IMG/VR virus record: IMGVR_UViG_3300037470_000856
Span: 32,001 to 96,000 of that record
Length of the DNA: 64,000 bases
Reading direction: 5' to 3' (one strand)
Origin: a virus
The translations under genes and the position numbers were made by a program. Below the pieces are notes generated by a model, which was not told the DNA's origin, ran no database searches, and saw only the letters and a list, made by a program, of their open reading frames with translations. Below are positions 1,637 to 57,293 of the stretch, piece after piece (positions within the stretch are counted from its first letter, which is position 1; each line of letters starts with the position of its first letter).

Positions 1637-2098
1637 TCACGGCCAGTGTCTCACAATCCAGTGGCTCGACCTGATTTTCACGTTGAAGCGAGATTGCAGG
1701 AACTCGTCCGTCGCCGACGAGCTGAACTCCTTGCAGGAGAACACATCGAGCGCGAAGCGGTGACGCAGGGGCCAGGTGTGGATGCTGAGATGGCTCGTGG
1801 TGTGGATGCTGAGATGGCTCGTGGTGTGGATGCTGAGATGGCTCGTGGTGATGATGCAGGTGCCCGTGACGCCGCCGTCGTCCTCGAGCGTGCCCCCCAT
1901 CTTGGCCGGCTCGAGCGGGACGGTCTTGAACGTAGGGGCGACGAGCACCTTCATGTCGAGGAGTTCTACGAGGTCGAGGAACACCTTCTTGAGGAACACG
2001 ACGTCCCCGAGCTGCCCCGACTTCTCGGGGTTCACGACGGCGTCGTAGGTAAGGTGCCAGCCGGCGTAGTTGTTGTCCATGGCGGCACTCGGGTTCAC
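1637..2098 (-). CDS. speD: S-adenosylmethionine decarboxylase proenzyme family
   Basis: GWHLTYD, GGVTG..IITTSHLSIHTWP and ALDVFSCKEF match prokaryotic AdoMetDC (G.HL..D; GvTg...l.ESH.SIHTWP; lDvFsC). Confidence 0.85.
   Translation of the reverse strand: MNPSAAMDNNYAGWHLTYDAVVNPEKSGQLGDVVFLKKVFLDLVELLDMKVLVAPTFKTVPLEPAKMGGTLEDDGGVTGTCIITTSHLSIHTTSHLSIHTTSHLSIHTWPLRHRFALDVFSCKEFSSSATDEFLQSRFNVKIRSSHWIVRHWP
1776..1850. repeat. 24-bp exact tandem repeat x3 inside speD
   Basis: gtgtggatgctgagatggctcgtg at 1776, 1800 and 1824, encoding TTSHLSIH three times. Confidence 0.95.
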
Positions 2099-10700: not shown

Positions 10701-12190
10701 CGCTGGACAGCGTCCTGGAGGCCAAAGCCCCAGTACGCCTTCACCAGGTTAGGGTTGTTGGTCGGGAGGTCGATGCGGTTGTTCGAGAGCGACAGGAAGA
10801 CGTTCTGGCCGAGCGGGTTGTTGCGCCCGTTGCCCGTGGTGGGCTGAGTCGGCAGCGTGAACTTCGTCCGGTCCTCCACCGGAGGTGTCACGGCATCGTT
10901 GACGACGGGCTCCGTCGGCGCCAGAAACCAGCGGTTGTCGACGAGCAGACCGCTGATCTGAGTCGGGCCGAAGGGCGGAGCACCGGGCGTGGTGACGCCC
11001 GGGTTCACGAGGAACGCGGTGCCCCAGACGATGAGGTCGTCCTTGAGGACGAAGTCGGCGTCTTCGATGAAGTCGTTGTTGCCGGGGACGATGCCGCAGC
11101 GCAGGACCTCGGTGACGTTGATGTTCGCGAGGTAGTCGAACGTGTCCTGCCAGGAATTGAAGAAGTACTGGATCGTAACACTCTCGCCGACGCCCGGGGC
11201 GAAGGGGAGCACGACCGCGCGGTTCTGGCCGTCGACCTCGGTCGGGATGACCTGCGTGCCGTCGACGCGGACGGTCACCTTCGAGGTATCCATCGTGGTG
11301 ATGCCGCCGTTGGTGCCGTCCACGATCGGCCCGTTGAAGACGTAGAACGTCCTGTTGCGGTTCGTGTCCTGGCCGTTGGTGAACCCGAGCACCACGTTGA
11401 CGGTGCCCGCGAGGATGCGAATGGCTCGGTCCGCCACAAGACGCACGGCGGTGAGCCCGAAGTTGTTCGTGTAGGTCGAGGCCACCAGGGAAGTGGCCGA
11501 CGCAGCACCGTTGATGAGGGAGACGACCGTGGCCGCGCTCACGCTGCCCGTGGGGAAGGTGACCGAGATCTCCTGGTTCTGGTCGTCGTCGACCCGGAAG
11601 TTGAACTCGTTGGTGTCGACGGTGAACTCGTAAGTGTTCCCGATGGCGCCGTCGAGCACGGCCGACTGAGGCGTGACCTGGTCCGACACGGTGTCGGTGA
11701 TCTGCGTGTCCGTGCGCTTGAAGAAGTAAGTGACGCGGACGTCGTCGCCCAGAACCGGGGCCGTGCTGATCTCGATGACACCGATGTTGGCGCGCGCAAC
11801 GCTCAGGACTACGTCGGGCTGTCCGTTGATCGTCACGAAGATCGAACTGGGATCGGTGGCGATGGTGCCGCTCCCGTCACCGTTGGTGATCGGGTAGTTG
11901 CGGACCTGGATGCGCCGGCGCTCTCCGTTGAAGTTGCCGAGCGTGACCTCGCCCGTCTGGCTGATGCTCACGACGGCGCGACCGGTCTCGTCCTCCTGGG
12001 GGACCTGCTGGTCCACCGACGAGCTCGAGCCACGGAGGACCTCAAGGCTCTGCTGCTGGAGAAGTTCGTTGCCCGTCCCGATCATGACCGGGATGCGCAC
12101 ACCTGCGAGGACACCCGAGACCGGGTTGTCGAATTTTGTGCGGGTGTAGACGCCAGGGGGGCTGTAAATGGTACCCGGAAAATTTGCCAC
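4748..12190 (-). CDS. Giant tail sheath protein with large internal insertions
   Basis: N-terminal YSPPGVYT motif and C-terminal sheath domain (ERTAIIG...IRIRQGLTT...FIGIK...FYQPVFPLLYIVITFNL) of contractile sheaths; 2480 aa. Confidence 0.9.
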   Translation of the reverse strand: MANFPGTIYSPPGVYTRTKFDNPVSGVLAGVRIPVMIGTGNELLQQQSLEVLRGSSSSVDQQVPQEDETGRAVVSISQTGEVTLGNFNGERRRIQVRNYPITNGDGSGTIATDPSSIFVTINGQPDVVLSVARANIGVIEISTAPVLGDDVRVTYFFKRTDTQITDTVSDQVTPQSAVLDGAIGNTYEFTVDTNEFNFRVDDDQNQEISVTFPTGSVSAATVVSLINGAASATSLVASTYTNNFGLTAVRLVADRAIRILAGTVNVVLGFTNGQDTNRNRTFYVFNGPIVDGTNGGITTMDTSKVTVRVDGTQVIPTEVDGQNRAVVLPFAPGVGESVTIQYFFNSWQDTFDYLANINVTEVLRCGIVPGNNDFIEDADFVLKDDLIVWGTAFLVNPGVTTPGAPPFGPTQISGLLVDNRWFLAPTEPVVNDAVTPPVEDRTKFTLPTQPTTGNGRNNPLGQNVFLSLSNNRIDLPTNNPNLVKAYWGFGLQDAVQRGAVAVTAVNGTEITLKDPVPVGADVWATFYYNILVDEEYTVTVETSGPSGIGNYFLFDSNGNPIFTPNFGVKGPAMTGVTVQFPSGSELTPDVHFEGGTDGPVEETVTVTFADEDATIAKFTVDGAGPYAFVTGESDRARFLVDSAVLAGGAAGIDLSAPHGVQGLGFSASLLGDEIAYTDDSGKTTYDILSGINDTVAMTVDGVVLTVTVPSQTGVDADAYVEAINADAKLVANAPFLDGTTRFLGATVMTAGEYDQLVFNYMGVTNGSTGPVTATIAPGIYLSPSTMAAAVNSALDTAIAALPASFDGIDIVCSANADGQMRFTFTGADTDLGTFATGTVTNVGSIVGDTITIGGITLTGELGVTAGGLNYDTGQARGTLIPMSVEPGDTFTIDTTVLGGGPVLITATGAQTPGGINFNEGTQATGTLTVSGPIPNDTVTVDGITLTALGAQTPGGLNFDEGTRSTGSATLTGVQYGDTITIDTSVVGGGPVTLTASNTLTPGGMDFNVGTAATGDFMTMGVRAVSAGPWPVVAADTTAINGNVLTPVEGARTPGADDFDAGTRSLGMLTVVADSLGPSTGVLYGDTLIIAGIALTADDVTTPGGLNFNAGIQAIDTLIVMAAPASATITIDSGGANGGPFPLSPAGGPRTPGANDYDETLGTTAAIAAEIAAALNDPANSFSTFMSAAVGPGPSDVTLPWTVPGSFANVVTNMSSDGTVTTTGGFGGGVGDEIATATAIVAAILDPLNGLTGTVQAHNTGGASAVVDIRAITPGVAGDSISTVSTAPVRLTFGAATLMGGVGTDATAATDAAAAINDVANSFDGDVSAVVVGTTVNLTAVIPGIVGNFITLSTTAAGRFVLSGGTLLGGVGDDISVATSLVAAITDLANGLTLVVASNVGGTSNVVTIDAFTPGIVGDGITLSTTAAARIVLSGGTLLGGVGDNTTVAASIAAAINDAGNGISVTVTAMAVGSGVTMTAVTPGNAGNIIDTTSSSATRLLMSALTLQGGVGTNLSVATSIVAAINDPGNGLALYLTANNEGGTSTTVTVWANIPGVGANGVLLMSSPGVRLPVSGATFGGGLTDVGVATTIVTATTDPLNGLDALVTADNTSGTSSTVDLTAAVPGPSGNFIDLSSSSGVRLPVSASTLTGGTGLGGGVFEFIDASSVGEDFAVLAGLSTDALPSQEQTKVIDGDIARRFTVAGSSGRLLYDRILMRNRVVPGSGSIRPESQVAQTSLVVEGTNASAFTGLSAKAFGQADIEATIRPASLFGEVGFKDGQVASGTYGDDRDGQPAVQFYGASGLNPRNNVFKFNIDGTPVTVVVTDGTGAAIPAAGEALVPLGPVTSPNTVLRQIQTACVGAGLPADSVVQEGAGIRLVSSLSDTSSAVTINDGNANDVLGFSEGATAARSLVEVEKVASALMMHHSTTVNGALLDYQSPDTTFFADQALAGKMVDSANNEFLFVQSQANNIVGLGASSNISFLNASTASWLLTGTGLDVASGDGASGESGFQGFYVTSSDPIDGSGSVDTSCLNNGVGQDGVIGQTYRDTKTGLVFTILERQGGADYPTGAGAWFTFEVRKLVTTDANLPANSIPGLELTVANTEGSTIPQGDTAIVETFESGGQEPAVGDSYFVTYNYTKTEADFETMLFTNQRAVERNYGEISPDNPVSLAAFLSFLNGAVVLGIKQVPKIPGSNQASTPSYLDALNDLRGPLPGGGTLDTITPLKGDDVDLFLALKNHCDIQSSIRYRSERTAIIGVSSGTQPSDVGGIANQIHNTRIRLVYPDIVTVTIQDALGNDKQFLVDGTYLAAAVAGDRARPNIDVATPWTRARIVGFDQLQRNLDAVEQNQVAVQGVTVLDQSGTVIRIRQGLTTDISNILTKLPTVITIADEVQRAARRDLDRFIGIKFLPGVLSEIEGQLATTMKALKNAEIITAFTGIQARTTNDPTVVEVEAFYQPVFPLLYIVITFNLRSNLGG

Positions 12191-43628: not shown

Positions 43629-44159
43629 TCACTCCTCGCCGAACAGGTCGAGCACGGAGGGCTGGTTCTCCCCGGTGCTCTCCCGGATCTGATGCTCCGT
43701 GCACAGCTCGCCGTCCCCCATGATGTGGACGAGTTCGTAGCCTCGCTCGATGAGGCCCACGCCCACAAGCCGCCTGCGGTGGCACCCGGCCGGGTCCTGC
43801 TCGCTGCACATGAGCGCGAGCGGGGTCATGGGCGACTCAAGGCCCGTGGCGAGGTCGGCGAGGTCGGCGAGGCCGTCCTGGTACGTCTGCGACGCCCTGA
43901 TCTTCGCGTAGTCCGGGCTGCCACGCGTCCTGAGTTTCGGATCGTCGGGCACGCCGCCGAGGGAGTGCCCGAGCCACACGTACGGGATGCCGGCGAGGCG
44001 CAGGGCCTCGGCCACGTCGTGTCGGTTGAACTGCGGGTTGTGCCGACTGAACGGCTTGCTCCGAACGTCGACGAGCACCTTGACGCCGTGTCGCCTGAGG
44101 CGGTCGATCAAGTGACCGACAGGGCGGTTACTGTGCCCGATGGTGTAGACGGTCTTCAC
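43629..44159 (-). CDS. DUF488 family protein
   Basis: YTIGHSNR...LVDVRSKPFSR...LGG...ALMCSE.DP..CHR; GTG start overlapping the upstream stop. Confidence 0.85.
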   Translation of the reverse strand: MKTVYTIGHSNRPVGHLIDRLRRHGVKVLVDVRSKPFSRHNPQFNRHDVAEALRLAGIPYVWLGHSLGGVPDDPKLRTRGSPDYAKIRASQTYQDGLADLADLATGLESPMTPLALMCSEQDPAGCHRRRLVGVGLIERGYELVHIMGDGELCTEHQIRESTGENQPSVLDLFGEE

Positions 44160-44473
44160 CGGCGCCCCGCATTGTACTCGTCCCACATGGACTGCCAGTA
44201 CTCGCGGTCGTACTCCGCGCAGTCGGGGCAGTAGGGGACGGGGACGTTGGGGTCCGGGTCCTCCTCGGTCGGCTCATACGCCGTGTGGGCGTCCCAGAAC
44301 TCGACGCCCTCCGTCGTGCCGCAGTGGGTGCAGAGGAGGCCGGCCCCGTGCTGCTCGCCGTCGAGCCACACGCCGTACAGCATCTCGAGCAGCGCGTCCG
44401 AGAACTCCTCGGATCGCTCGCCGAGCCGAGCCTCAAGACGAAGCATGAACAGCGCGTCGTAGCGCGCCTTCAT
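44156..44473 (-). CDS. Small zinc-binding hypothetical protein
   Basis: CTHC...CPDC; ATGA-coupled to rnhB. Confidence 0.55.
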   Translation of the reverse strand: MKARYDALFMLRLEARLGERSEEFSDALLEMLYGVWLDGEQHGAGLLCTHCGTTEGVEFWDAHTAYEPTEEDPDPNVPVPYCPDCAEYDREYWQSMWDEYNAGRR

Positions 44474-45144
44474 GTGGCGCCGTTTAGCAAGTCCGCAATG
44501 TCTGGTCCATCGACGAAGTCTGGCTTCTTCCTCCACGTCCATGATCTGCGCGCCTCCGGTGGAAGTTCTCCGTGCTTGGCCTCATACGCCTCGAGGAACT
44601 TCCGACTGCCCTCGTTAACATACCCGCCGCCAGTGATCTTGCCGAACTCGGTCTCGTACTTGCGCACGATCTCGTCCATCAGTTCGTCGCGCCGGACCTT
44701 GGCGACGATGGACGCCGCGGACACACAGACATGCCTGGCGTCGGCCTTGTTCTCGGCGACGAAATTTGGCCATCTATCCTGGGAAAGGCGGCCAAAAATG
44801 GGAGCACCGTCGCAGATGATCCTGTCATTGGTCGCCGCCCCGATCTTATTGAGGAGCAGCAGGGCTCCCTCGCGCTCAAGGTCGTCGAGCCGTCCCTGCC
44901 GGACGTATCGGTCGATCACCTCGGGCTCGAACACGACGACCCGATGCTCGCAGCGCGACAGGACAGCGGGGAGCGCGGCGAGCCGAGCCGTCTTGGCCTT
45001 CTGGCCGCTCCCGTACTTCTTGCTGTCCTGGATGCCGAGCTTCCTGAGTTCAGCCTCCTGCTCCGTCGTGAGCAACACGGCCGCCATCACCATCGGTCCG
45101 AGCACGGGACCGCGACCGGCCTCGTCGATGCCAATCAACCTCAT
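44470..45144 (-). CDS. rnhB: Ribonuclease HII
   Basis: IGIDEAGRGPVLGP, DSKK, KAD...VSAASIVAKV.RD. Confidence 0.92.
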   Translation of the reverse strand: MRLIGIDEAGRGPVLGPMVMAAVLLTTEQEAELRKLGIQDSKKYGSGQKAKTARLAALPAVLSRCEHRVVVFEPEVIDRYVRQGRLDDLEREGALLLLNKIGAATNDRIICDGAPIFGRLSQDRWPNFVAENKADARHVCVSAASIVAKVRRDELMDEIVRKYETEFGKITGGGYVNEGSRKFLEAYEAKHGELPPEARRSWTWRKKPDFVDGPDIADLLNGAT

Positions 45145-45392
45145 CGCCTGGGCACCCCTGCCTCCGCCATGCACGCGGGGCAGACGATGCCGTCCTTGTT
45201 GCAGCGTCCGATCTCAATGCGCTTCTGGAGGTCAGCGAGCCCCTTCCAGACGTGCCCTCTTCTGCGCGCGAGCTCAACCTCGAACTCCTCCGTCGGGATG
45301 CTCGAGAGATTGATCCCGAACGCGTCTCCTCGCTCCCTCTGGCGCTCGATGGCCCGTCGCGCCGCGGTGTAACTCTTCCCTGTCTCGGTCAT
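45141..45392 (-). CDS. Small hypothetical protein
   Basis: MTETGKSYTAARR...CPAC; ATGA-coupled on both sides. Confidence 0.5.
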   Translation of the reverse strand: MTETGKSYTAARRAIERQRERGDAFGINLSSIPTEEFEVELARRRGHVWKGLADLQKRIEIGRCNKDGIVCPACMAEAGVPRR

Positions 45393-45832
45393 CCGGACAC
45401 GGACGACTTTCTTGAATTTCCCACGTCTTCCCTCTTCCTCCGCGCCAACGTGTCTCTCAGGTTCTCGATCCCGAGCGCAAATTCGTCTCCCTCGACGAGA
45501 CGCCTCAGCGCCACGGTGACGTGATCGCGCAGCAGCGTGCGGATCTCGGGGTTGTTCAGCACGTCCTTGAGCGGGGAGGAGAAGCGGGGCTGCGGGACGA
45601 ACACAGAGACGCACGCGAGATGCGGCACGTCGGCGAACCCCGCGGCCCTCACCGCTTCCCGGACGCCGAGGACGTGGGACCCGGAGCGCGTGCGCACCGT
45701 GTTGCCCCAGGAGAAGAAGGTCTCGCCGTCGCCCATCTCTTGGCCGGTGTGCCACTGGAACGCGACGTCGAAGGAGAGACCACCCTGATTGACGCGGAGA
45801 CGGAAGGGTCGTGGAGAATCTATTCGGCCCAC
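45389..45832 (-). CDS. Stand-alone GyrB/ParE transducer-like domain
   Basis: DVAFQW...FSWGNTVRT.SGSH..G.R...SVFVPQPRF...KDVL.N resembles the GyrB second (transducer) domain; no ATPase or TOPRIM domain. Confidence 0.6.
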   Translation of the reverse strand: MGRIDSPRPFRLRVNQGGLSFDVAFQWHTGQEMGDGETFFSWGNTVRTRSGSHVLGVREAVRAAGFADVPHLACVSVFVPQPRFSSPLKDVLNNPEIRTLLRDHVTVALRRLVEGDEFALGIENLRDTLARRKREDVGNSRKSSVSG

Positions 45833-46113
45833 CGAGCCTTCGGATCTCGATGTGGGTTGGCCACAGAGGCCGGGCGCCAGTCCGGGTCCACACGGGCGAA
45901 TCGCTCGTGCTCTCGGGAGAACTCTCCGAGGCGCTCGGCGATCTCGTCCTGGGACATGTCCTGCGCGGCATCGTGTCCGATGACGATGTTGATGTGGAGG
46001 GACCGCAGCCATCCCCGGAGCATCTCGATGCCAGCCAAGTGGTTTCTATCGGGTTTCTCCGCGTCGAGGCGAATTTTGCGGAGTTCGAAAAGAGGGTCTT
46101 GGTTCGGGCTCAC
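45820..46113 (-). CDS. Hypothetical protein
   Basis: GTG 46113 with GGAG RBS; tiles between neighbours. Confidence 0.45.
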   Translation of the reverse strand: MSPNQDPLFELRKIRLDAEKPDRNHLAGIEMLRGWLRSLHINIVIGHDAAQDMSQDEIAERLGEFSREHERFARVDPDWRPASVANPHRDPKARWAE

Positions 46114-46126
46114 CTGCGTACTACTC

Positions 46127-46984
46127 CTACAGGGTTGTGCCCGCATCGGCGTCGAGGAGCGCCTTGCGGAGCATGTCGAGGTTCGGGGCCTCGGTCTCGA
46201 TCTTGAGTGCAGGCGTGTACCAACCCACCCGGAACGGACGCTCAAGTTCGTGCGGCACATGGATGACGACGTCGGAGTCTCCAAGACCCAGGAGTACTAT
46301 CGTGTCCACGAGCCCCTTCTCCATCGCTGCGGCCGCCACCTCGGCATGATCGTCTTCCGCCAGGAAACGGAACACCTCTTCCAACTCGCGGTCTTCACGA
46401 ATGATGGTGTCGTGGGTGTGGTCCCAAACCCCGTGCTCGCCGTCGAACCAGAAGATCTCCGGGGAGCTCGAGAAAGAGGCACCTCGGATCGTCGCGACGA
46501 CTTCTTCGAGATGCTTCCGGTACTCTCCGCGGACACGCTCGGATTCCTTGAGATCGGAGAGGGCCTTATCTCGGAGTTCCGCCAGTTTCATGGGTAGCCT
46601 CATGCGTTCTACTCTCTGAAGAAGCTTGGCCGTCGAGGGCCTCTGAGTGTAGGGGTCGATGCCTCGAGCCGCAGCCAGAGAGCAAAGCCATGCCGCTGCC
46701 CGGCGCGATTTTTTCGATCCCGGATGCGGGTCAACATCACCCGGTCCGTCACAAGGCCCTTGCGCCACGCGAGCAGCTCCTCGGGCGGCAGGTACCCGTG
46801 CCTCGTCGCCGCGGTCACCCCGAAGTAGATCAATCCCGAGCCCTCCTTGGACGGCCCAAGAGTAGGTCCATGTGACGTCCTCGACGGTGAGTTCGGGCAC
46901 CTCCTTGTGGAACTTGGCCATGATGTGTGCCACCAACTCCGGGTGATGCTCCACGACTTGCTTGGGTTTCAGGTGGCGTTCCAT
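46127..46984 (-). CDS. Hypothetical protein(s); possibly two genes joined by a frameshift
   Basis: The middle of the ORF reads like off-frame sequence, while the overlapping 46609-46833 frame reads protein-like. Confidence 0.4.
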   Translation of the reverse strand: MERHLKPKQVVEHHPELVAHIMAKFHKEVPELTVEDVTWTYSWAVQGGLGIDLLRGDRGDEARVPAARGAARVAQGPCDGPGDVDPHPGSKKSRRAAAWLCSLAAARGIDPYTQRPSTAKLLQRVERMRLPMKLAELRDKALSDLKESERVRGEYRKHLEEVVATIRGASFSSSPEIFWFDGEHGVWDHTHDTIIREDRELEEVFRFLAEDDHAEVAAAAMEKGLVDTIVLLGLGDSDVVIHVPHELERPFRVGWYTPALKIETEAPNLDMLRKALLDADAGTTL

Positions 46985-46987
46985 CGC

Positions 46988-47383
46988 TCAATCCGTGAAC
47001 GTCCCATCAGGACCAATGCCCAACGCTCCCCCAAGGCTCTTCGTGCCCGGAGCCTGATGAGAGATCGAGCGGGCCTCCACGGTGCCCAGGAGTTGACGGA
47101 CACCCTTCTTCCACTCCTCGACGTCGTCCCAGTCCAGCGACTTCCCATCGTAGGACAGGAGTCGTTTCAGGGCGACTATCCCAGCCGTCAAGTCCAGCGC
47201 CAAGTCCCCGGGCCAGATGCCCTGATACCCGAGGCGTTGCAGCAGGTCGGCGCAGGCGAACACCTCCACCGTGAAATCCGACCGGAGACCTTTGCGAACT
47301 TTCGCAACGACGTCCTGGAGAGCCTCCGCATAGAACTCCTGGCCCATGTCGCTCTCGACGGGATGGTAACCCCAAGCACCCAT
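46988..47383 (-). CDS. DUF4259-like protein
   Basis: MGAWGY..ESD N-terminal signature. Confidence 0.55.
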   Translation of the reverse strand: MGAWGYHPVESDMGQEFYAEALQDVVAKVRKGLRSDFTVEVFACADLLQRLGYQGIWPGDLALDLTAGIVALKRLLSYDGKSLDWDDVEEWKKGVRQLLGTVEARSISHQAPGTKSLGGALGIGPDGTFTD

Positions 47384-47409
47384 AGCAGCACCCTACCTGG
47401 CTGGCGGCT

Positions 47410-47556
47410 TCAGGGCCACTCCGAACAGGCGACGACCTCCGGCTTGGTCGCGTCGCGTGCCATGTCCCAGAGGAGCCGCTTCGCCCCGGTGCCGTCGTCC
47501 TGGATGTGGATCCCGGCAGCCTCCGACTGGTCTTCCTTGAGTTTCGTGACCGTCAC
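47410..47556 (-). CDS. Small 48-aa ORF
   Basis: GAAGGAG RBS then GTG; MTVTKLKEDQSEAAGIHIQDDG...; fills the gap between neighbours. Confidence 0.35.
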   Translation of the reverse strand: MTVTKLKEDQSEAAGIHIQDDGTGAKRLLWDMARDATKPEVVACSEWP

Positions 47557-47605
47557 GCTCCTTCTACTCCGAGCTCAACGCGTTGCTACCGCCGCAGGCG
47601 CCGGC

Positions 47606-48142
47606 TCAGCCCTCTTCCGAGATCGCGTGGAGAAGCTGCGAGCAGACCTGGACCCACTGGCGCATCTTCTTGAAGTGATCCTTCGATCCCTCGTCCTTCG
47701 GCATGCGCACCGAGGTCTGGATGCCGGGGCGCACCGGGTCGTCGAGAGGCAGGTCCCGAGGCACCTCCACGATCGTGCACGTCAGGATCTCGCCCTCGGG
47801 ATGCTCGCTGGAGACGCGAACCTGGGCAGCGCGGAACGTGCCGTGCAGCTCCTTCTTCGATGGGTTCCCGTGGCGGTCGAAGCGGAAGCACTCCGCGAGG
47901 TCCTCGCCGACCGGCCGCCAAGCACCCACGATGCGCCCCGCATCGGCCACGACCACGATTGGCCTTTCGAGGCGAGGGAGCGCAGGCTCGTCCGGCATCC
48001 ACTTGTCCACGTCGTGCAGGTACAGCACCTCCGCGACGAAGCCGTGGGTGACGTCGGCGATGACGCTGAGAGAGTCGATCAGCGTCTCCTGCGAGATGCC
48101 GGGCATCTTGCCGGCCATGAAGTCTCCGAGTGTGAAGGACAT
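47606..48142 (-). CDS. Hypothetical protein (start MSFTLGDF)
   Basis: AAGGAGG RBS before ATG 48142. Confidence 0.6.
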   Translation of the reverse strand: MSFTLGDFMAGKMPGISQETLIDSLSVIADVTHGFVAEVLYLHDVDKWMPDEPALPRLERPIVVVADAGRIVGAWRPVGEDLAECFRFDRHGNPSKKELHGTFRAAQVRVSSEHPEGEILTCTIVEVPRDLPLDDPVRPGIQTSVRMPKDEGSKDHFKKMRQWVQVCSQLLHAISEEG

Positions 48143-48384
48143 GTCCCTCCTTTTACACCTTCGTCGGTCCGCGATCCTACGGCTTGCGGAACACCAGGAT
48201 GGGCTCTCGTGCCTGGTCCTGCGACCGGTTGAGAGACGAGGTGGGTCGGTGGCGGTGCAATGGCGGTGACCCCGAGACGACCACTGATCCCACCGGTTCG
48301 CCACAGCCTCAAACCCCATCTCGACCGTAGGTCTGCTCGTCCCGCTCCGCGCTCCACGGACAGACGCCAGTAGCCGCGATCCTC

Positions 48385-50901
48385 CTACGGCTGATCATCG
48401 AGCATGGGGTCGGGCTTGCGGAAATCTTGGACTGACCCCACCTCACCGCGACGCAGCAGTTTCTCCCGACGCCGGTGCTCCTCGTGACAGAACTTCCCGC
48501 TGTTCTGCTTGCTGTAGTCCACGAACTCCCGGCCACAGTGACGGTACGCGCACGTCTTCGTGCGACGTCGAAACTCGTCGGCCTCCATCATCTCGACGCG
48601 GCATTTGGGGCAGTGCTTCGGACGCCCTCCCGTCAAGGACACCTTGAAGTCTTGGCCGCAGCTTTCGTTCTGGCAGGTGAACACACGATGGTCTTTCCGA
48701 GGATGCCTCCTCCGCTGCGCCCTACGTCGTGCTCGAGTAGCACAGGATTCGCCACAGAACCGGTTGTTCGTCCGCGACGCGTGGAACTGGCGCGTGCACC
48801 CTTCGCACACCTTCACGATCTCCTTCTGTGGGCGCTCTGGCAAAGGCATCACTACCTCGACAGGCTCGCGGAACTCCTGCTCCTCGGCGAGGGCCCCGCG
48901 TCTGCACCACACCAAGACCCACTCGCAATTATCAGCCTTCACCGGCGACGGCATCGCGTACCGTATGCGTTCCGGTTGCCCGAGACCGAGTTCGATGCCG
49001 ATGGCGGCGGTGTCTTCCACGAGGTTGTACTTCACACCCCGGTAGATGAAATCGTCCACGTTCAGCACGAGCCAGCCCCCTGGCGCCAAGGTACGCACGG
49101 CACGCTCCACCACAACCTTCCAGAACCGCTCAAGCCATACCTCGTAGGTCCCATAGCGCGCGCTCGACTGCGTGTTCTCGTCGGCGTAGTGCTCCTGTTT
49201 CCAGTACGGAGGCGATGTGAGCACCATGTCAACGCCGGGGGGAGGCTCAAACTCTTCGGCAGCCACGCAGCTCAGCTCGACGCGCTTTTCAGATCCCGGC
49301 ACGTAACGATCCACCCACCGCGCGAGCTCGTGCAGCCCTTGGAACGATTTCGTGCTCGGCTCGCAGGCGATGTACCGTGCCTTGGCCGAGGAGGTGAGCG
49401 CCCCGAGCATGCGCCCTCCCCATCCCCCGCACGGGTCGAACACGGTGCCCCCCTCGGGGCAGTAACGGTCCACGAGGACCTTCGCCACCGAGGGTCGGAA
49501 GTTGTAGACGCCCGACAGCCGGTAGCGGAGCCCTCTGCGAACGCCGGCCGCGTTGGGGACTTGTCCACGCTCAAGCACCCCCTCAAGGACACGGCGCAGC
49601 TCTGTGTCGTCGTCGAACATGGCCTTCGGACTGACGCGGCTCCCCGCGTTGTGGGCGTCCCAGATGTGAGGCATGAACGCCTGGCAGCTAGACTGACCCA
49701 CCTGCCGCGCCTTGAGGGTGTCTCTTTGCAGGATGTGGCCGAGTTCAAGACGCGCGAGGGTAGACAAGTCCTCTGGCCGTGCGACGTGATAGGGGAACCC
49801 GGCACCTCTCCAGAAAGCGAGCAGATCATCAACTAGCTGATTGTCACCCTTCGCCCATGCCTTGCAGCGCTCGCGAAGTTCCTTCGGCAGCGATATCCTC
49901 TCGCTGGTCTGGATCTTCGGAAGCGGCCGCACTTCCTTCGGCCAGAATCGTTCCGGGAGCTTGTGCAGCATGTCGGGGGTGATATGCGGAGCGACTATCT
50001 CGAACAGGCGCCTTGCTGAGGCGGCTCGAATTTTGACCATCTTGCAGGTGGGATGGTGAGTAGTGACGTAGATCCTCAGGTTGAATCGCCTTCCCAGACC
50101 CTCCGCAATCTCCTGTGCTTGCTCTTCCGAAAAGTCCCCCACAGCGAAAGCCGGGATGCCGCCGTCCTCCAAGGTTCCATCATCGAAATACCAGAACGCC
50201 AAGGACCTCTCCGTCAGAGACTCGATGATCGAGGGCAGGAATACTTTCTCGCCGTTCGGATAGAGCAGCCGCCGCATCGCTTTAAGCCAGACGTGCTGGT
50301 CTGTGCGGAACCCGAAGCCGGCCCGTACCTCACCGGAGTCGTGCATCTGCTTCTCCTCGTAGAACATGGGGCGCGAAATCGGGGACAAAATGTCGTGGAC
50401 GTGCTTGAGGTAGGCGTGCGTGACCTTGAAAATCCCTCGCTCAAGCAGATGCCCGTCGCCCAGCATCGACCCGATGATGACCTCCTTCTGCTCTTCGGTG
50501 AGCTCAACGACCGACGTTGACCGCTCCGTCTTACTGATCGCCTCGATGCCCCACAGTTTCCGGAGCCGTTGGATCGCGGACTTTTTGACGCCGTAGTGCT
50601 TGGCGATTTGGCGCTCGCCCATACGGCTGTAGAGGTCCCGCAGGATGGCGGGCGTCACGTCGTCGAGAGACGGCCCAGCATGGCCCTCCTGCCGTTCCCT
50701 CCTCTGTCGCGGGGTGATGGGGCCGATGCCCCAACGCTTCCTCAAGCGCGCCACAGCAACGTCGCTGAACGCCGTCTCAAGGCCAAGGTCAGCGGCCACC
50801 TTCGCCGCGATCTGCGCGTCGGTCAGCAGATCCTCTTTGTAAAGGCGCCGCAGTTTCATCTCATCCAGGGCCTTGGAGAGCATCCCGTATTTGGTGGCCA
50901 T
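48385..50901 (-). CDS. HTH + LAGLIDADG endonuclease + amino-DNA methyltransferase + zinc ribbons fusion
   Basis: IIGSMLGDGHL and LAFWYFDDG (LAGLIDADG_2-type); FRPSVAK..DPCGGWGGR..TSPPYW MTase; C-terminal CxxC repeats. Confidence 0.8.
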   Translation of the reverse strand: MATKYGMLSKALDEMKLRRLYKEDLLTDAQIAAKVAADLGLETAFSDVAVARLRKRWGIGPITPRQRRERQEGHAGPSLDDVTPAILRDLYSRMGERQIAKHYGVKKSAIQRLRKLWGIEAISKTERSTSVVELTEEQKEVIIGSMLGDGHLLERGIFKVTHAYLKHVHDILSPISRPMFYEEKQMHDSGEVRAGFGFRTDQHVWLKAMRRLLYPNGEKVFLPSIIESLTERSLAFWYFDDGTLEDGGIPAFAVGDFSEEQAQEIAEGLGRRFNLRIYVTTHHPTCKMVKIRAASARRLFEIVAPHITPDMLHKLPERFWPKEVRPLPKIQTSERISLPKELRERCKAWAKGDNQLVDDLLAFWRGAGFPYHVARPEDLSTLARLELGHILQRDTLKARQVGQSSCQAFMPHIWDAHNAGSRVSPKAMFDDDTELRRVLEGVLERGQVPNAAGVRRGLRYRLSGVYNFRPSVAKVLVDRYCPEGGTVFDPCGGWGGRMLGALTSSAKARYIACEPSTKSFQGLHELARWVDRYVPGSEKRVELSCVAAEEFEPPPGVDMVLTSPPYWKQEHYADENTQSSARYGTYEVWLERFWKVVVERAVRTLAPGGWLVLNVDDFIYRGVKYNLVEDTAAIGIELGLGQPERIRYAMPSPVKADNCEWVLVWCRRGALAEEQEFREPVEVVMPLPERPQKEIVKVCEGCTRQFHASRTNNRFCGESCATRARRRAQRRRHPRKDHRVFTCQNESCGQDFKVSLTGGRPKHCPKCRVEMMEADEFRRRTKTCAYRHCGREFVDYSKQNSGKFCHEEHRRREKLLRRGEVGSVQDFRKPDPMLDDQP

Positions 50902-50968
50902 ACTCGGGATACTACCGAACCCATGCCCGAACGTCCAGACTAACGGATGAGTCCAACCGTAGACGTAG

Positions 50969-51000
50969 AAAAGGCCACTCCGGCGAACCGGAGCGACCTT
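50969..51000 (-). terminator. Intrinsic terminator after the major capsid gene
   Basis: Minus strand GGTCGCTCCGG-TTCG-CCGGAGTGGCC followed by TTTT. Confidence 0.75.
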
Positions 51001-51019
51001 CTCAGATCAGTCGCTATTC

Positions 51020-51895
51020 CTAGCGAGTGACCGTCAGGCGCGTCAACCCACGTGGGTTGTAGGCCCCAATGCCAAGGTTCTCGAACACACTGAAGCCAAT
51101 GGTTCTAGCCTTCGGATCGTCGGCAGACAGAACGGTCAGCTCCGTCCTGACCGGGATCCTCCCGAACATCTCGGGTTCGCAACACACGTACACGGTGCCC
51201 GCGGGCACGATGCGGCTCGTGATGACCTGGGAACCCCAGAGGGTGGCCTGGAGGCCGGTCTTGAGCAGTGTCGCCTGGCTCTCGATGTCCAGGATGTCCC
51301 GACCGAACTTGCGGATGTCGGCGTAGTCCCGAGCGTTCAGGTACACGCGCGCGACCCGGAGGTCGTGGCGCTCGATGAGCGCGAAGGCATCGGCCAGCAC
51401 CGCACCGGAGATCGGAGCGACCACCGGGATGTCGGGGTTGGTTCCACCGGGGATCGAGTCGAACCCGTTGGTGGCGATGGCATCCAGAACGGCGAACACT
51501 CGCTCGTCCTCGGCGGCCTGGATCTGCGCTCGCGCGAGGTTCTGGGCACGCTCGATGAGGTCGAAGCGGCGCTCCTTGATCTGGGTGAGGGGAATCTCCG
51601 GGTTCGAGGCGATCTCGAACAGCGGGAAGATCACGCGACGCGGCTTGGTGACCGCGATGATGTTCTCGCCCTCTTCGCCGACCACGAACGCGGTGACGTC
51701 GGGGTCTTTGTCGTAGATGGGCAGAGCACCGTCGGGGAGTTGCTCGACCAGGAAGGTCTTGCGTCCCACCGAGGTGTAGTCTCGCCGAGTACGGAGAGGC
51801 TGCGTCAGCGACGCGGCCAGCTTGGCACGACCCGCGGGGGTCTTGATGTACTCGGAGATGAGTCTTTGCTTCACAGCGTTGGAAACACCGGTCAT
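51020..51895 (-). CDS. Major capsid protein (HK97 fold)
   Basis: 291 aa from MTGVSNAV with AAGGAGA RBS; GRAKLAASLTQPLR, FEIASNPEI and FSVFENLGIGAYNP; follows protease, scaffold and decoration genes. Confidence 0.85.
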   Translation of the reverse strand: MTGVSNAVKQRLISEYIKTPAGRAKLAASLTQPLRTRRDYTSVGRKTFLVEQLPDGALPIYDKDPDVTAFVVGEEGENIIAVTKPRRVIFPLFEIASNPEIPLTQIKERRFDLIERAQNLARAQIQAAEDERVFAVLDAIATNGFDSIPGGTNPDIPVVAPISGAVLADAFALIERHDLRVARVYLNARDYADIRKFGRDILDIESQATLLKTGLQATLWGSQVITSRIVPAGTVYVCCEPEMFGRIPVRTELTVLSADDPKARTIGFSVFENLGIGAYNPRGLTRLTVTR

Positions 51896-51911
51896 TGTCT
51901 CTTCTCCTTTC

Positions 51912-52571
51912 CTAGACGCGCTGGTCGTAGACCAACTCGAACTGCTCCGAGTCGGGCGGCATCTTGAGGATGCCCAGCAGGGTGGAGGCCGCCGCACCGT
52001 TTGCGACCTGGGACGTGATCGTCGCGATGTCGAGGGACACCGCGGCGCCGGTTTGGGTGGTGACACGCATCATCAGGTAGCCGTTGCGCGAAGCGACGAG
52101 TTCCTGACCGGCCGTGTAGATGAGGTCGTCGCCCGCGGCGAGCGGAGCGGCGGCGGCCAACGCCTGCGTCTCGAAGAGTTGGTTCCCGTAGGTTCCCTGG
52201 GCGGACACGTAGGTGTTTTTGCCCGAGGCGGGTCCCGGCTGGTTCTCGAACGCGTTCCCGACAGCCGTGTTCACGAACACGCCGAGAGGCTGGATGAGGA
52301 TGTTGTCGGGGGCGCCCGGCTCGACCGGACCTCCGATGAAGTTCGACCCTTGGTCGGGTCGGGTGAAGGCGACGCTGCCGCTCAGGACACCGAGCACTCC
52401 GGTGTTGGTCTGAGTGGAAATCGTGCCTGCGGTGGTGACGATGGGCGGGTTGGTCTGAGTGAAGCCATCCGCCGTCAGAACGCCGGTGGCGTTCCTGATC
52501 CCTACGTGCAAAAGACGCAGGGCAGCGGAGCTCTCGGTCCACCCACCACTCGCCTGTCCAAGCATCGGCAT
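51912..52571 (-). CDS. Capsid decoration/cement-like protein
   Basis: Gly/Ala/Thr-rich, PLGVF..., SGKNTY; directly upstream of the capsid gene. Confidence 0.6.
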   Translation of the reverse strand: MPMLGQASGGWTESSAALRLLHVGIRNATGVLTADGFTQTNPPIVTTAGTISTQTNTGVLGVLSGSVAFTRPDQGSNFIGGPVEPGAPDNILIQPLGVFVNTAVGNAFENQPGPASGKNTYVSAQGTYGNQLFETQALAAAAPLAAGDDLIYTAGQELVASRNGYLMMRVTTQTGAAVSLDIATITSQVANGAAASTLLGILKMPPDSEQFELVYDQRV

Positions 52572-52699
52572 TTGCTGTTGCTCCTTGTTTACTGGCTGAG
52601 TGAGGTGGGGTTCGTGTCGGCGGACCTGGGAATCAGAGTCACTTCACGCTACCGGCCCGAACCATTCACATATAGGCGCCCTGGATAGGGGCTTTACCG

Positions 52700-54245: not shown

Positions 54246-57200
54246 CTAGAACCGGGTCTGCTTTCGCAGCGAAAGGATTCGCCCAAGACGCACCAAGGTC
54301 TTGGCTTCTCCCGTTTGTGGTTTGCGACCGAGCACCTCGGCACAGCGCGCGAGGTACTTATCGAGGGACGGATGCCCGTCGGTAGACCCGACCCGGAGAG
54401 CGGTCCTGTAGAGATCCCTCGAAACTTGGAAGTCGTGGGTCTGCTTGAGCCGGGCGATCCCGTCGATCAACTCCACGTCGGACCGGGCGATGCAAAGCAG
54501 CGCCTCGGTCCCGGCGGCCAGCTTGGCCATGGCCGCCTGGTGGTTGATGTTCTCGTTGGTGGAGGTCTCGAGTTCGGCGGGCGAGGGCTCGTCCTTGTCG
54601 CCCTCGTCGCCCTGCATCTTGTCGCGGAGCTTCTTCTTGATCTTGTCGAGGACGTACTTCTCGACCGCGTCCTCGAGATCCTTCATCGGGTCCGCGTCCT
54701 CGCCCCCGCCCGGGTCGCCTGGCATCCCGGGCATGCCGCCTCCGGCGTCGTCTCCGGCGTCGTCTCCGGGAGGAGCGGTGAGCTGCGCGAGGCGAGCGTG
54801 CGCGAGGCGGGCCTGGCGACGCTCCTCGGCGAGCTCGGCCGCGGTCTTGGATCCCTCGAAGCTGACGGTCATGTCGCGCGCGGCCTTGGCCATCTCGTCC
54901 TCGCTGGCCGTCCACTGGCGCGGGGGCTCCGAGAGGAGGCGCTGCATCTGGCTGCGTGTGTCGAGGTTGATACTGTCGGGCTGCAGGATGTTGCGCATCA
55001 CGGCGCCCTGGAACGCCGGGACGTCGACCCAGGATGCCTCGATGAAGGTAACGCCACCCGTGGGGTCGAGCGTCTCGTGGCCGCACAACTCGGCGACCCG
55101 AAATTTGTTGCCAAGCTGGTCGTACTCGTACTGGCCCTTGCCATACTTGACGTGCTCGCAGTTGTGAACGGCAAGGCCCTCGACCACATATGAATGATCG
55201 CCCTCGACCCCGAAGTTGTGGACCGGACCAGAGTAGGGCTCGCAGGAGACGCCCCGAACGCGGTAAATGAGCCAGTTACCGACGCGCTTGAACCCATCGG
55301 TCACGGCCGACATCGTGACACGGGCTGTCTCCCGGTCAGAGAACCTGACCTCATCACCGAACCCTTGAGGATCGGAGACCACAAGACCGAACGAGGGGAG
55401 CCACCCACGGTGGTCGCGTACGGTAACGGAACCGTCACCGTTCACCACTTGGTCGAGGGTCGCGCTGCGACCTCCAAAGGTGACCTTCTTGTACGAGTAC
55501 AAGCCGCACCGCGCGGCTAAGATGTGCATCTGGTTCAACAGGTTGAGTGATGTAGTGGAGCCAACGATACCGACGTCCGCCTGCGTTGCATCACCGCCGA
55601 GCCACCCGAACAGGACGTGCTTCTGCACCTCAGGACTCCATCGGAGAATTGAGGGATCAAGACGTTTTTCGTGCGAATACTCGCCGCAGTACCGGAAAAA
55701 GAACTCGGCGACCTGGGCATCCATGAAACGGACATCCACGGACCCGCTGTCCTCTGTGCTGCCGGAATTCCGGTTCCGATGCACCCGGACCGACCTGTCT
55801 GCGCTCCCCACCCACTGCCGGTTGCAAACCTTGCACTGGTAACAGTCATCGGCCCCTTTCTTGAACCGGACGTTGTACGCGTACTCCGAGGGAGCCCGGC
55901 ACCCCGGGCACATGACGTCAGAGGAGACCGACCGGCTCGTGCTACGTCGATGGACCGGAGTCACGCTGTCGCGGGCGACCAAGGTGCGCCAGTTTTCCGA
56001 CGAAACCCGTCGCTCGTCGCGGCCGAACTCCTCGTTCAGGAGCTTCTCCACCTCAGCCGCGAGAGTGTCATGCTCGTGGTGGCCGAATGTGAAACTGACC
56101 CCGACCCTCTCACTGTCCCGCTTGATGAAGGATCCCTCGGCCAGGAAATAGCCAATAAGCCGCGCCCTGTTGACGGTAGCGTCGTCTGTGTTCTCCGTCT
56201 CCTGCGGGATGGGGAAAGCGAGATAGTCCCCAGCCCTGAGGTCTCTAGCCGCGACGAATTCCAAGTCCACGTCGAACAGGCGTTTATAATCCCCCATCTC
56301 CACGACGTTCACGGCATAGGGATTCGGGTTTTGCAGCCGCGTGTTGTGGCCTGGGAGGAACCGGCGCCGGAACGCCTTCACCGAACCGCGCTCGTGCTCC
56401 ACCGTACGCCGAAGCGGAGCTCCACAGCCGCACGCGCAGATCTGTGCGGGTCGGAGCGTCCAGTACGGATGGTTGGGGGTGGAGCGCAATCCAACTGGGA
56501 CCCCGTCGACGTCGAGCGAGATGAGATGCCCCTCGTACGGACGGCGCATTGTCTCTGTGACGGCGCCCGTCAAACCTGTGTGGGTAACGACGGCATCTCC
56601 CTCGACAATCTCCTCGATCGGCACGTACCGTCCGTCCGCCAGGAGCACACGGGTGCCGGGAGGGAAACACATCTCGGTCTCGTCCGCAGCCACGTTCCCG
56701 CACTTCGTGCAGATCGTCTCCGTGACGCTGCAGCCCATGCTCATCGTGCCCATGCGGCCCGACTCGATGTCGCGGATCAGGCTCGCGTGGCGACGGCTCG
56801 TGGCGATGAGGATGTCGACGTAGACCGAGTCGCCGATGTCGCGGGCGGCGGCGTCGATGATGCGGCCCTTGGACTGGTCCTCGATCTGGACGTGCTCCAC
56901 GAAGTTGTGGGCGCCGACGAAGGTGCGGTAGCTCTTGAGCAGCACCGGGCGGTCCCACGCGTCGTGGTTGTTGTTGATGTAGATGTCGCACTTCGGGAGG
57001 ATGTGGTAGTTCGCCCACCGCCGATTCACCCGACGTCCCATCTCGCTGACGTTGCCGAGTTTGACGTTCGACACCTCGGAGGTGTCCACCGACGCCACGA
57101 TGGTCGCGTGCGTCAGGAGATACTTCTCCGGGGAGAACTGGTCCTGGAGGATCTCCGACGCCTGCGCCACGAGGTTCGGCGAGCTCGAGGCGGTGCGGAC

Positions 57201-57293
57201 GCGGCCCCTGGCACGCTGCACGAAGTTCCCCCAGTAGTCGATCGACCACGAGGGCTGTGTCACGTCCGCGCGGGCGTACTTGAGGAAGGCCAT
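54246..57293 (-). CDS. Putative prohead protease containing an intein
   Basis: NNNHDAW, FVEH, GRIIDA, SMGC...CTKCGN and ASWV..PAF motifs; position upstream of scaffold and capsid genes. Confidence 0.7.
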   Translation of the reverse strand: MAFLKYARADVTQPSWSIDYWGNFVQRARGRVRTASSSPNLVAQASEILQDQFSPEKYLLTHATIVASVDTSEVSNVKLGNVSEMGRRVNRRWANYHILPKCDIYINNNHDAWDRPVLLKSYRTFVGAHNFVEHVQIEDQSKGRIIDAAARDIGDSVYVDILIATSRRHASLIRDIESGRMGTMSMGCSVTETICTKCGNVAADETEMCFPPGTRVLLADGRYVPIEEIVEGDAVVTHTGLTGAVTETMRRPYEGHLISLDVDGVPVGLRSTPNHPYWTLRPAQICACGCGAPLRRTVEHERGSVKAFRRRFLPGHNTRLQNPNPYAVNVVEMGDYKRLFDVDLEFVAARDLRAGDYLAFPIPQETENTDDATVNRARLIGYFLAEGSFIKRDSERVGVSFTFGHHEHDTLAAEVEKLLNEEFGRDERRVSSENWRTLVARDSVTPVHRRSTSRSVSSDVMCPGCRAPSEYAYNVRFKKGADDCYQCKVCNRQWVGSADRSVRVHRNRNSGSTEDSGSVDVRFMDAQVAEFFFRYCGEYSHEKRLDPSILRWSPEVQKHVLFGWLGGDATQADVGIVGSTTSLNLLNQMHILAARCGLYSYKKVTFGGRSATLDQVVNGDGSVTVRDHRGWLPSFGLVVSDPQGFGDEVRFSDRETARVTMSAVTDGFKRVGNWLIYRVRGVSCEPYSGPVHNFGVEGDHSYVVEGLAVHNCEHVKYGKGQYEYDQLGNKFRVAELCGHETLDPTGGVTFIEASWVDVPAFQGAVMRNILQPDSINLDTRSQMQRLLSEPPRQWTASEDEMAKAARDMTVSFEGSKTAAELAEERRQARLAHARLAQLTAPPGDDAGDDAGGGMPGMPGDPGGGEDADPMKDLEDAVEKYVLDKIKKKLRDKMQGDEGDKDEPSPAELETSTNENINHQAAMAKLAAGTEALLCIARSDVELIDGIARLKQTHDFQVSRDLYRTALRVGSTDGHPSLDKYLARCAEVLGRKPQTGEAKTLVRLGRILSLRKQTRF
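55161..56669 (-). mobile_element. Intein (503 aa) with LAGLIDADG homing endonuclease
   Basis: Starts CFPPGTRV (Cys209); block B TPNHPY; LIGYFLAEG and GWLGGD; ends HNFGVEGDHSYVVEGLAVHN followed by Cys. Confidence 0.92.

Follow-up and report, generated by a model that had tools for sequence, protein, structure and literature searches.

Free-standing homing endonuclease genes (HEGs), of which the Seg and Mob genes ("intronless homing") are examples, are enriched beside essential genes, including those for capsid, terminase, and ribonucleotide reductase (PMC10448857). Phage T4 has segD between genes 23 and 24, and HEGs are known to be controlled by hairpins that mask the start site (PMC2988022). 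The HEGs of T-even and other phages are of the GIY-YIG, HNH, or T5orf172 type and lack a modification domain; "methyl" is absent as a word from the review of T4 mobile elements (PMC2988022), as is "methyltransferase" from the study of HEG neighborhoods (PMC10448857). Here, we analyze a gene that joins a LAGLIDADG nuclease to a methylase. It lies on the minus strand at positions 48385 to 50901 of a 64,000-nucleotide stretch of viral DNA, referred to below as the window (positions 32,001 to 96,000 of IMG/VR record IMGVR_UViG_3300037470_000856), and it encodes a protein of 838 amino acids, P0001. Like the Seg and Mob genes, it is an open reading frame (ORF) of its own beside an essential conserved gene and is sporadic in its distribution. 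Unlike the phage HEGs just mentioned, it carries a methylase.

Polypeptides that combine a nuclease with a methylase are known from several settings. Gosselin et al. (2023) reported a LAGLIDADG domain in nine actinophage methylases from one phage cluster, the Taj_79 group; they raised both a selfish insert and a single-chain restriction-modification (RM) enzyme as explanations, showed no transfer, and stated that LAGLIDADG enzymes had not been described as parts of RM systems (PMC9957025). The Taj_79 proteins resemble P0001 in holding a LAGLIDADG nuclease and a DNA methylase in one phage polypeptide, but their methylase belongs to another family, whereas the kin of P0001 form a large family with a fixed capsid-flanking slot and many nuclease partners. 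No Mycobacterium phage matched the P0001-type methylase module at an E value of 1e-8. The single-chain RM enzymes of Types IIL, IIG, and IIC (MmeI, Eco57I, TstI) likewise carry a nuclease N-terminal to an amino-methyltransferase, and the logic of these enzymes, self-protection by the same protein, is the one proposed below for P0001 (PMC2582602, PMC2731913). They differ in that their nuclease is of the PD-(D/E)xK kind, their methylase is a gamma-class N6-adenine enzyme, and a C-terminal domain shared by the two recognizes short sites; their role is cellular defense. P0001 has a LAGLIDADG nuclease with its own predicted long-site recognition and a zinc-ribbon C terminus, sits in a phage cassette, and possesses neither the PD-(D/E)xK nuclease nor the shared domain of that class. 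Finally, Dunin-Horkawicz et al. (2006) described GIY-YIG/N-methyltransferase fusions in Lactobacillales and viewed homing endonucleases as a kind of RM system (PMC1564403). In the literature that we searched, which covered few subscription journals, we found no description of the present family, its capsid-flanking slot, or its range of nuclease partners; the only other LAGLIDADG-methylase fusion there was that of PMC9957025, with its different methylase family. The elements described below seem to form a class of mobile elements, for the most part undescribed, with a predicted "cut and mark" function.

From N to C terminus, P0001 consists of two helix-turn-helix (HTH)-like repeats, a LAGLIDADG nuclease, a methyltransferase module, and three zinc ribbons, as judged from the ORF list, the translation, Pfam and PHROGs matches, and homologs. 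The nuclease domain (amino acids 126 to 320; positions 49942 to 50526, minus strand) is of the monomeric I-SceI type. Pfam family PF03161 (LAGLIDADG_2) covers amino acids 139 to 297 with an E value of 9e-21 and a score of 75 bits against a cut-off of 25, and I-SceI itself aligns to amino acids 126 to 318 (E value of 6.5e-12, phmmer against PDB sequences). The motifs IIGSMLGDG (D149) and LAFWYFDDG (D241) align with D44 and D145 of I-SceI, both of which are catalytic; D149 is kept in 100 and D241 in all of the 103 members of the LAGLIDADG-methylase family. P0001 is therefore alike to I-SceI and the other monomeric two-motif enzymes of PF03161 over the whole nuclease domain, including the two motifs and both catalytic aspartates, and the methylase-LAGLIDADG fusion that an earlier note had read from the letters of the window is borne out. 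The gene for I-SceI sits in a group I intron, and the enzyme consists of the nuclease domain alone, whereas the P0001 gene is free-standing and adds the HTH, methyltransferase, and zinc-ribbon parts.

The two HTH-like repeats (amino acids 1 to 125; positions 50527 to 50901, minus strand) were recognized by reading the sequence; they measure about 60 amino acids each, both end in RLRK(R/L)WGI, and they are probably a DNA-binding module of the nuclease. HTH_23 was matched in 16 and HTH_28 in 10 of 63 homologs, and the repeat is common to the stand-alone LAGLIDADG genes that occupy the capsid slot described below. The three C-terminal zinc-ribbon units, of the CxxC...FCxxxC type (positions 48457 to 48819, minus strand), were likewise read from the sequence, with weak matches to YdjO and zf-CGNR. 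They are probable additional DNA-binding modules, and the same units stand N-terminally in fusions of PD-(D/E)xK nucleases with the same methylase. NCBIfam has no match for P0001 or for the stand-alone relatives of its methylase. We rejected an intein, as Pfam finds no Hint domain in P0001, and also an intron-encoded ORF, as the capsid ORF next to the gene is continuous and the gene lies 3' of the capsid terminator. By its domains and position, the P0001 gene is a homing endonuclease gene of the free-standing kind, with an I-SceI-type LAGLIDADG nuclease and its own methylase, and its product is predicted to make site-specific double-strand cuts at a long target, which for this enzyme class spans 14 to 40 bp.

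The methyltransferase module (amino acids 345 to 674, about 330 residues; positions 48880 to 49869, minus strand) was delimited by a structural model, fold comparison, profile matches, and family invariants. Its AlphaFold model (pLDDT 94.2, pTM 0.92) comprises a helical N-subdomain, which holds the GFP, PH.W, and DD..LR motifs, and a class I Rossmann domain. All of the motifs that the earlier note had listed are present (GFP, DDDTELRR, FRPSVAK, DPCGGWGGR, AEEFEP, DMVLTSPPY, and W..F), and motif I, DPCGGWGGR (amino acids 489 to 497), precedes motif IV, TSPPY (amino acids 562 to 566). In an alignment of 50 members, motif I has the family form DPCxGxGGR, and the invariant positions are F123, D144, G148, G151, and R152 for motif I and S218, P219, P220, Y227, and W244 for motif IV. 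Motif IV reads TSPPY in 247 of 279 family members and SSPPY in another 22. A SAM-binding motif I, a catalytic motif IV, and a Rossmann fold are all in place, and on this evidence the module is an intact amino-methyltransferase of class I. PF01555 was matched by 41 of 63 sampled relatives at an E value of 0.001 or lower; on P0001, it matches the motif IV stretch alone and, at 26.6 bits, misses its gathering cut-off of 26.7 by 0.1 bit because the family is built on the beta order of motifs. Membership in PF01555 proper was rejected in view of the permuted order (motif I before motif IV) and the score.

The substrate of the module is most likely DNA, as suggested by the SPPY motif, the matches to profiles of DNA enzymes, and the DNA nucleases to which it is fused. 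SPP(Y/F) is the form of motif IV typical of N4-cytosine DNA enzymes, and N4 of cytosine is probably the target base. A profile search of PDB sequences retrieved the DNA methylase 2zie (2.6e-9) and the DNA N4-cytosine enzyme 8s9n. NVP2058O_092 of the cultured Vibrio phage 2.058.O, annotated as an N-4 cytosine-specific DNA methylase on the strength of its motif signature, is 32% identical to the module and has the same motif order and TSPPY; it differs in being a stand-alone protein of 330 amino acids, without a nuclease, encoded in a replication and nucleotide-metabolism module. Fold comparison by VIA-align placed the tRNA m2G enzymes Trm11, TrmN, and Trm14 on top (Z of about 17), with RsmC, METTL5, and PrmC also among the structural matches, as would suit a methyltransferase acting on RNA (m2G or m6A type) or on protein, in which case the biology of the fusion would be a different one. 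These rows, however, stand amid dense ties with many other Rossmann methyltransferases, and Foldseek against PDB returned generic Rossmann methyltransferases only. Such crowding leaves the substrate unsettled by fold, whereas the sequence profiles (PF01555, 2zie, and 8s9n), the [ST]SPPY motif, and the fusion partners, all of them DNA nucleases or DNA-binding modules, argue for DNA. We consider any other substrate extremely unlikely.

To place P0001 among its relatives, we searched for both the full-length fusion and the methylase module. A word-indexed search found at least about 50 clusters of full-length LAGLIDADG-methylase proteins (830 to 1230 amino acids), many of them on contigs of 250 to 530 kb, and an exhaustive search yielded 4601 representatives of the module, which is always on the C-terminal side. 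Among 279 distinct modules sampled for their partners, 135 stand alone and 99 are joined to LAGLIDADG_2. The remaining assignments are zinc ribbons plus a tandem domain (10), HNH (6), ParB (6), Ros/MucR plus an HNH-like region (5), DUF7487 or "homing endonuclease" PHROGs (4), LAGLIDADG_3 (3), endonuclease VII (2), and a DUF559/Vsr-like domain (2). The same module of about 330 amino acids is thus C-terminal to several unrelated nucleases, in keeping with the recurring "homing nuclease plus methylase" class that the earlier note had proposed. On the methylase tree with partners mapped, the partners are of many kinds and clustered, yet they switch frequently, with 49 changes where 10 would be the minimum.

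The tandem domain belongs to sister elements found in the capsid slot (L030:7111-9315, L032:8088-10292, L034:2118-4156, L053:8045-10399, L071:1705-4089, and L131:2892-5087), which combine N-terminal zinc ribbons, a tandem PD-(D/E)xK domain, and the same methylase module. Their nuclease part goes unrecognized by Pfam and PHROGs; its model (pLDDT 87) has the restriction endonuclease NhoI (Z of 12.7) and the PD-(D/E)xK homing endonuclease I-Ssp6803I (Z of 12.3) as best folds. This likeness concerns the sister elements and not P0001, and they differ from I-Ssp6803I and NhoI in being tandem single-chain proteins with zinc ribbons and a methylase.

The two halves of the LAGLIDADG_2 fusions have diverged together. 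Across 90 such fusions (4005 pairs), the identities of the nuclease and methylase halves correlate with a Pearson r of 0.905 and without a single discordant pair, at mean identities of 33% and 36%. Both catalytic centers are intact in 94 of the 99 fusions, the decayed sites amounting to one nuclease-dead copy and two doubtful methylase variants. The co-divergence and the intact centers therefore indicate that the fusion is old, has been inherited as a unit, and has both halves under selection. Three proteins, P0064 (1560 amino acids), P0008 (982 amino acids), and P0068 (1084 amino acids), each contain two separate matches to the methylase module, and by this arrangement, they may be tandem or double fusions.

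The conserved neighbor of the P0001 gene, and its candidate target region, is the major head protein gene at positions 51020 to 52066 (minus strand; phrog_2522, E value of 2.4e-49). We identified 572 related capsid loci in IMG/VR and examined the best 80, which are 78 to 98% identical; 73 of these have enough downstream sequence to identify what follows the capsid gene. An orthologue of the P0001 fusion fills this slot at 9 loci (the window included), a more distant LAGLIDADG-methylase fusion at 3, and a PD-(D/E)xK-methylase fusion at 5. Stand-alone LAGLIDADG genes of 300 to 400 amino acids, 26 to 31% identical to the fusion nuclease, occur at 25 loci, and the other 31 hold none of these kinds. 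No stand-alone methylase was seen in the slot across the 80 loci. At one locus, on a 619-kb phage contig, three tandem LAGLIDADG genes (293, 323, and 401 amino acids; L003:8180-11294) follow a single capsid gene, and the slot can therefore stack successive invaders.

Occupancy of the slot does not follow the capsid lineage. On the capsid DNA tree, the nine fusion carriers need 8 changes, compared with a mean of 8.5 for shuffled labels, and the sister of the window on this tree, L004, bears a stand-alone LAGLIDADG gene instead of the fusion. The window is homologous to noncarriers only as far as the capsid stop codon, whereas its homology to L001, a carrier of an orthologue, runs on through the terminator into the cassette. 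Both flanks, the capsid end and the next conserved gene, are common to L058 and L007, yet the cassette between them is a 2.9-kb fusion in L058 and a 1.2-kb LAGLIDADG one in L007. Remnants are also found. In L041, a LAGLIDADG ORF is cut short after its first motif, and L064 (8104-8355) and L080 (4250-4501) each have an ORF of 83 amino acids right behind the capsid gene, the last 54 amino acids of which correspond to the C-terminal end of the methylase (46% identity to L022) and the start of which is HTH-like. This ORF is apparently what an internal deletion has left of a nuclease-methylase fusion. In a large clade of huge phages, the capsid stop codon opens a cassette slot with rapid turnover of occupants, a scattered distribution, and decayed remnants. 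Two marks of a free-standing HEG are found here: an intergenic ORF of its own, and presence in some close relatives but absence from others at a homologous site.

In an independent scan of viral contigs that used methylase patterns only, all eight long fusions with upstream sequence sit 100 to 200 nucleotides behind a capsid homolog, and these homologs range from 88% down to 36% identity. Together with the many relatives whose slot is filled by such genes, this makes a strong case for the link to a conserved gene that the earlier note had suspected. Among prokaryotes, represented by one genome for each of 185,579 species, the LAGLIDADG-methylase fusion was found at two loci only; it is preceded by a phage capsid gene at one and lies on a 3-kb contig of a metagenome-assembled genome (MAG) at the other. 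The LAGLIDADG-methylase fusion is restricted to phage DNA, and a bacterial origin is unlikely.

The placement of the gene also bears on its expression. The fusion ORF begins 118 nucleotides past the uninterrupted capsid gene, and between the capsid stop codon and the fusion ATG stands the terminator hairpin of the capsid gene (positions 50968 to 51003, minus strand), with a 16-bp stem and a UUCG loop (RNA fold of 50880 to 51025, z of -4.43). A hairpin occurs at the corresponding place in all related loci, and the position immediately downstream of the capsid terminator stands as first described. A second predicted hairpin (50880 to 50912, minus strand; RNA fold) surrounds the fusion ATG at 50899 to 50901 and possibly damps translation. 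Between the capsid gene and the fusion, we found no sigma-70-like site and no copy of a candidate late-promoter motif, the nearest copy lying upstream of the capsid gene at 52685 to 52699. No promoter of its own found, a position behind a terminator, and a predicted start-codon hairpin are traits shared with the Seg and Mob genes (PMC2988022; PMC10448857), and the slot placement and the predicted weak, terminator-shielded expression fit known free-standing HEGs.

The 141-kb record covers an estimated 31% or so of the genome of a huge uncultured phage and holds only two copies of the methylase. The second is part of a paralogous gene at positions 2109 to 4703 (minus strand), fusion #1, in which Pfam, PHROGs, and BLASTP matches identify an HTH, a Ros/MucR zinc finger, an HNH-like region, and a methylase of the same family. 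The two methylases are 30% identical over 262 amino acids (BLASTP E value of 2e-29), far above chance. The claim that they belong to one family is upheld, with the caveat that they lie in different subclades of the methylase tree. That the nuclease of fusion #1 is a different one is likewise confirmed by its HTH, Ros/MucR zinc finger, and HNH-like PHROG match, with no LAGLIDADG. The region beside it (4748 to 12190) has no Pfam or PHROG match, and a sheath or tube identity was not confirmed. Directly downstream of fusion #1, the gene at 1637 to 2098 (minus strand) encodes an S-adenosylmethionine decarboxylase domain (PF02675, E value of 2.7e-18), such that a SAM-consuming enzyme adjoins the SAM-dependent fusion.

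Several other features surround the capsid gene and the P0001 gene. Two genes upstream of the capsid gene, a protein of 1015 amino acids (54246 to 57293, minus strand) matches head maturation protease PHROGs over amino acids 102 to 210; an intein-like insert, with Hint_2/Hom_end_hint from amino acid 208 and LAGLIDADG_3 at amino acids 374 to 429, either interrupts this protease part or comes after it and would be a second homing element. On the other side, four convergent ORFs (180, 342, 358, and 461 amino acids; 43692 to 48232, plus strand) abut the 3' end of the fusion. They have no Pfam or PHROG match and no counterpart in the 80 related capsid loci, many of which instead carry conserved same-strand genes 3' of the capsid gene (clusters c1-c2-c3). 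The nearest public relative, LR745208.1 (485 kb), has a same-strand capsid match, with a methylase match just downstream of it and then a LAGLIDADG match, in matching order. Many of the best methylase matches in bacterial genomes are on Acidobacteriota MAG contigs (L164, L166, L168, L170, L176, L179, L184, and L199), and among cultured phages only one resembles the capsid gene at the DNA level, and it infects the acidobacterium Tunturiibacter, a weak hint at Acidobacteriota as the host phylum.

We tentatively prefer, at somewhat less than an even chance, to read the P0001 gene as a free-standing homing gene whose tethered methylase gives its carrier self-immunity. The fusion would be made late and at a low level, from transcription that reads past the capsid terminator. 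During mixed infection, its nuclease, guided by the HTH and zinc-ribbon modules, would cut a long site within the capsid region, or close to it, in related phages without the element, and repair from the carrier genome would copy the cassette in, which is homing. The tethered methylase would mark carrier DNA at or near the nuclease site, and the carrier would be spared without mutation of a constrained sequence. The net effect would be a single-chain RM unit that a selfish element employs against rival phages. What favors this reading is that the module is fused to at least seven kinds of nucleases in a fixed order and that no bare methylase occurs in the slot; because the same module is repeatedly found C-terminal to such different nucleases, we argue that the physical link matters. 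In the last 870 nucleotides of the capsid gene, we found no significant fusion-specific substitution (best column, P of 5e-4 before correction for about 2600 tests). The lack of carrier-specific substitutions weakly fits epigenetic over mutational immunity.

Several points weigh against self-immunity. Stand-alone LAGLIDADG genes fill the same slot without a methylase, and a nuclease there evidently needs none. Stand-alone relatives of the module, frequent in phages as orphan methylases within replication modules, show that it also exists independently. The many partner switches on the methylase tree are hard to square with matched specificities and could be reconciled with them only if the methylase were generic and worked through tethering. 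A methylase acts in trans and would protect the site of a rival too. The 99 members include too few decayed copies to reveal a ban on the combination of a live nuclease with a dead methylase, and the patchy distribution could stem from loss and replacement alone. The narrower proposal of "epigenetic immunity" homing elements, in which a generic methylase tethered to a long-site nuclease would mark the target of that very nuclease on the carrier, we regard as possible but doubtful. If it were true, the element could attack an invariant essential capsid-region sequence in rivals without an immunity mutation, and RM-like units would have drawn their nucleases from LAGLIDADG, I-Ssp6803I-like, HNH, and Vsr-like enzymes alike. 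Such elements would be a living link between homing endonucleases and RM systems as well as a phage-against-phage weapon.

The same observations can be arranged otherwise. In the main alternative, the methylase would be beneficial cargo of a mobile nuclease, that is, an ordinary anti-restriction enzyme acting on a short motif throughout the phage genome; fusion would secure joint expression and transfer with the selfish gene, which would be kept because its cargo helps the phage. Orphan phage methylases are established anti-restriction tools (PMC9957025; PMC4190342), and stand-alone relatives of about 340 to 365 amino acids are abundant in viral contigs, among them the annotated N4-cytosine DNA methylase of Vibrio phage 2.058.O, whose gene lies amid those for a helicase, dCMP deaminase, and thymidylate synthase. 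A module conserved across all partners while the partners are often swapped also suits cargo, as do the LAGLIDADG genes that do without a methylase in the slot. Adjacency would suffice for co-transfer, however, and yet the module is fused to at least seven nuclease families in constant order; the lack of a stand-alone methylase in the slot at 80 loci and the joint integrity of both halves in about 95% of members also count against this explanation, which we hold to be quite possible though well short of an even chance.

An immobile, domesticated enzyme, which might exclude superinfecting relatives or cut host DNA while its own DNA is marked, would be inherited vertically with the capsid module, its patchiness reflecting only loss and replacement. 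Methylase identity does fall with capsid identity, from 77% at 93% to about 30% at 36%, and strong purifying selection acts on both domains, in contrast to the decay typical of HEGs. The carriers are nevertheless scattered on the capsid tree like random labels, the closest backbone relative (L004) has another occupant while the more distant L001 has the orthologue and a shared flank after the stop codon, and the remnants reveal a cycle of invasion and decay, all of which make domestication unlikely. Less likely still is that homing nucleases repeatedly invaded the 5' end of a conserved orphan methylase gene, which would serve as their target or host gene, and that the halves are functionally unlinked. 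Such an origin has been proposed for the LAGLIDADG domain in the actinophage Taj_79-type methylases (PMC9957025), and Dunin-Horkawicz et al. caution that many nuclease fusions may reflect nuclease mobility (PMC1564403); that one methylase family bears many different nucleases would agree with it. Recent invasions, though, would not yield halves that co-diverge family-wide, and the fusion travels as a unit into a slot in which no stand-alone methylase has been seen, tied to the capsid gene and not to the loci of stand-alone methylases. We consider an incidental fusion very improbable.

The two classic kinds of selfish nucleases, homing endonucleases and RM systems, protect their carriers in different ways: the former disrupt or mutate the target, while the latter methylate it. 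A large and conserved phage family in which an intact methylase is coupled to a long-site homing nuclease, and whose module occurs on most known homing-nuclease folds, would connect the two kinds, and the view of homing endonucleases as "another type of RM system" (PMC1564403) would become testable. The family would also be a source of natural rare cutters that come with their own methylase, which might be site-directed. For the phages themselves, the family could explain how selfish genes persist beside a near-invariant capsid gene.

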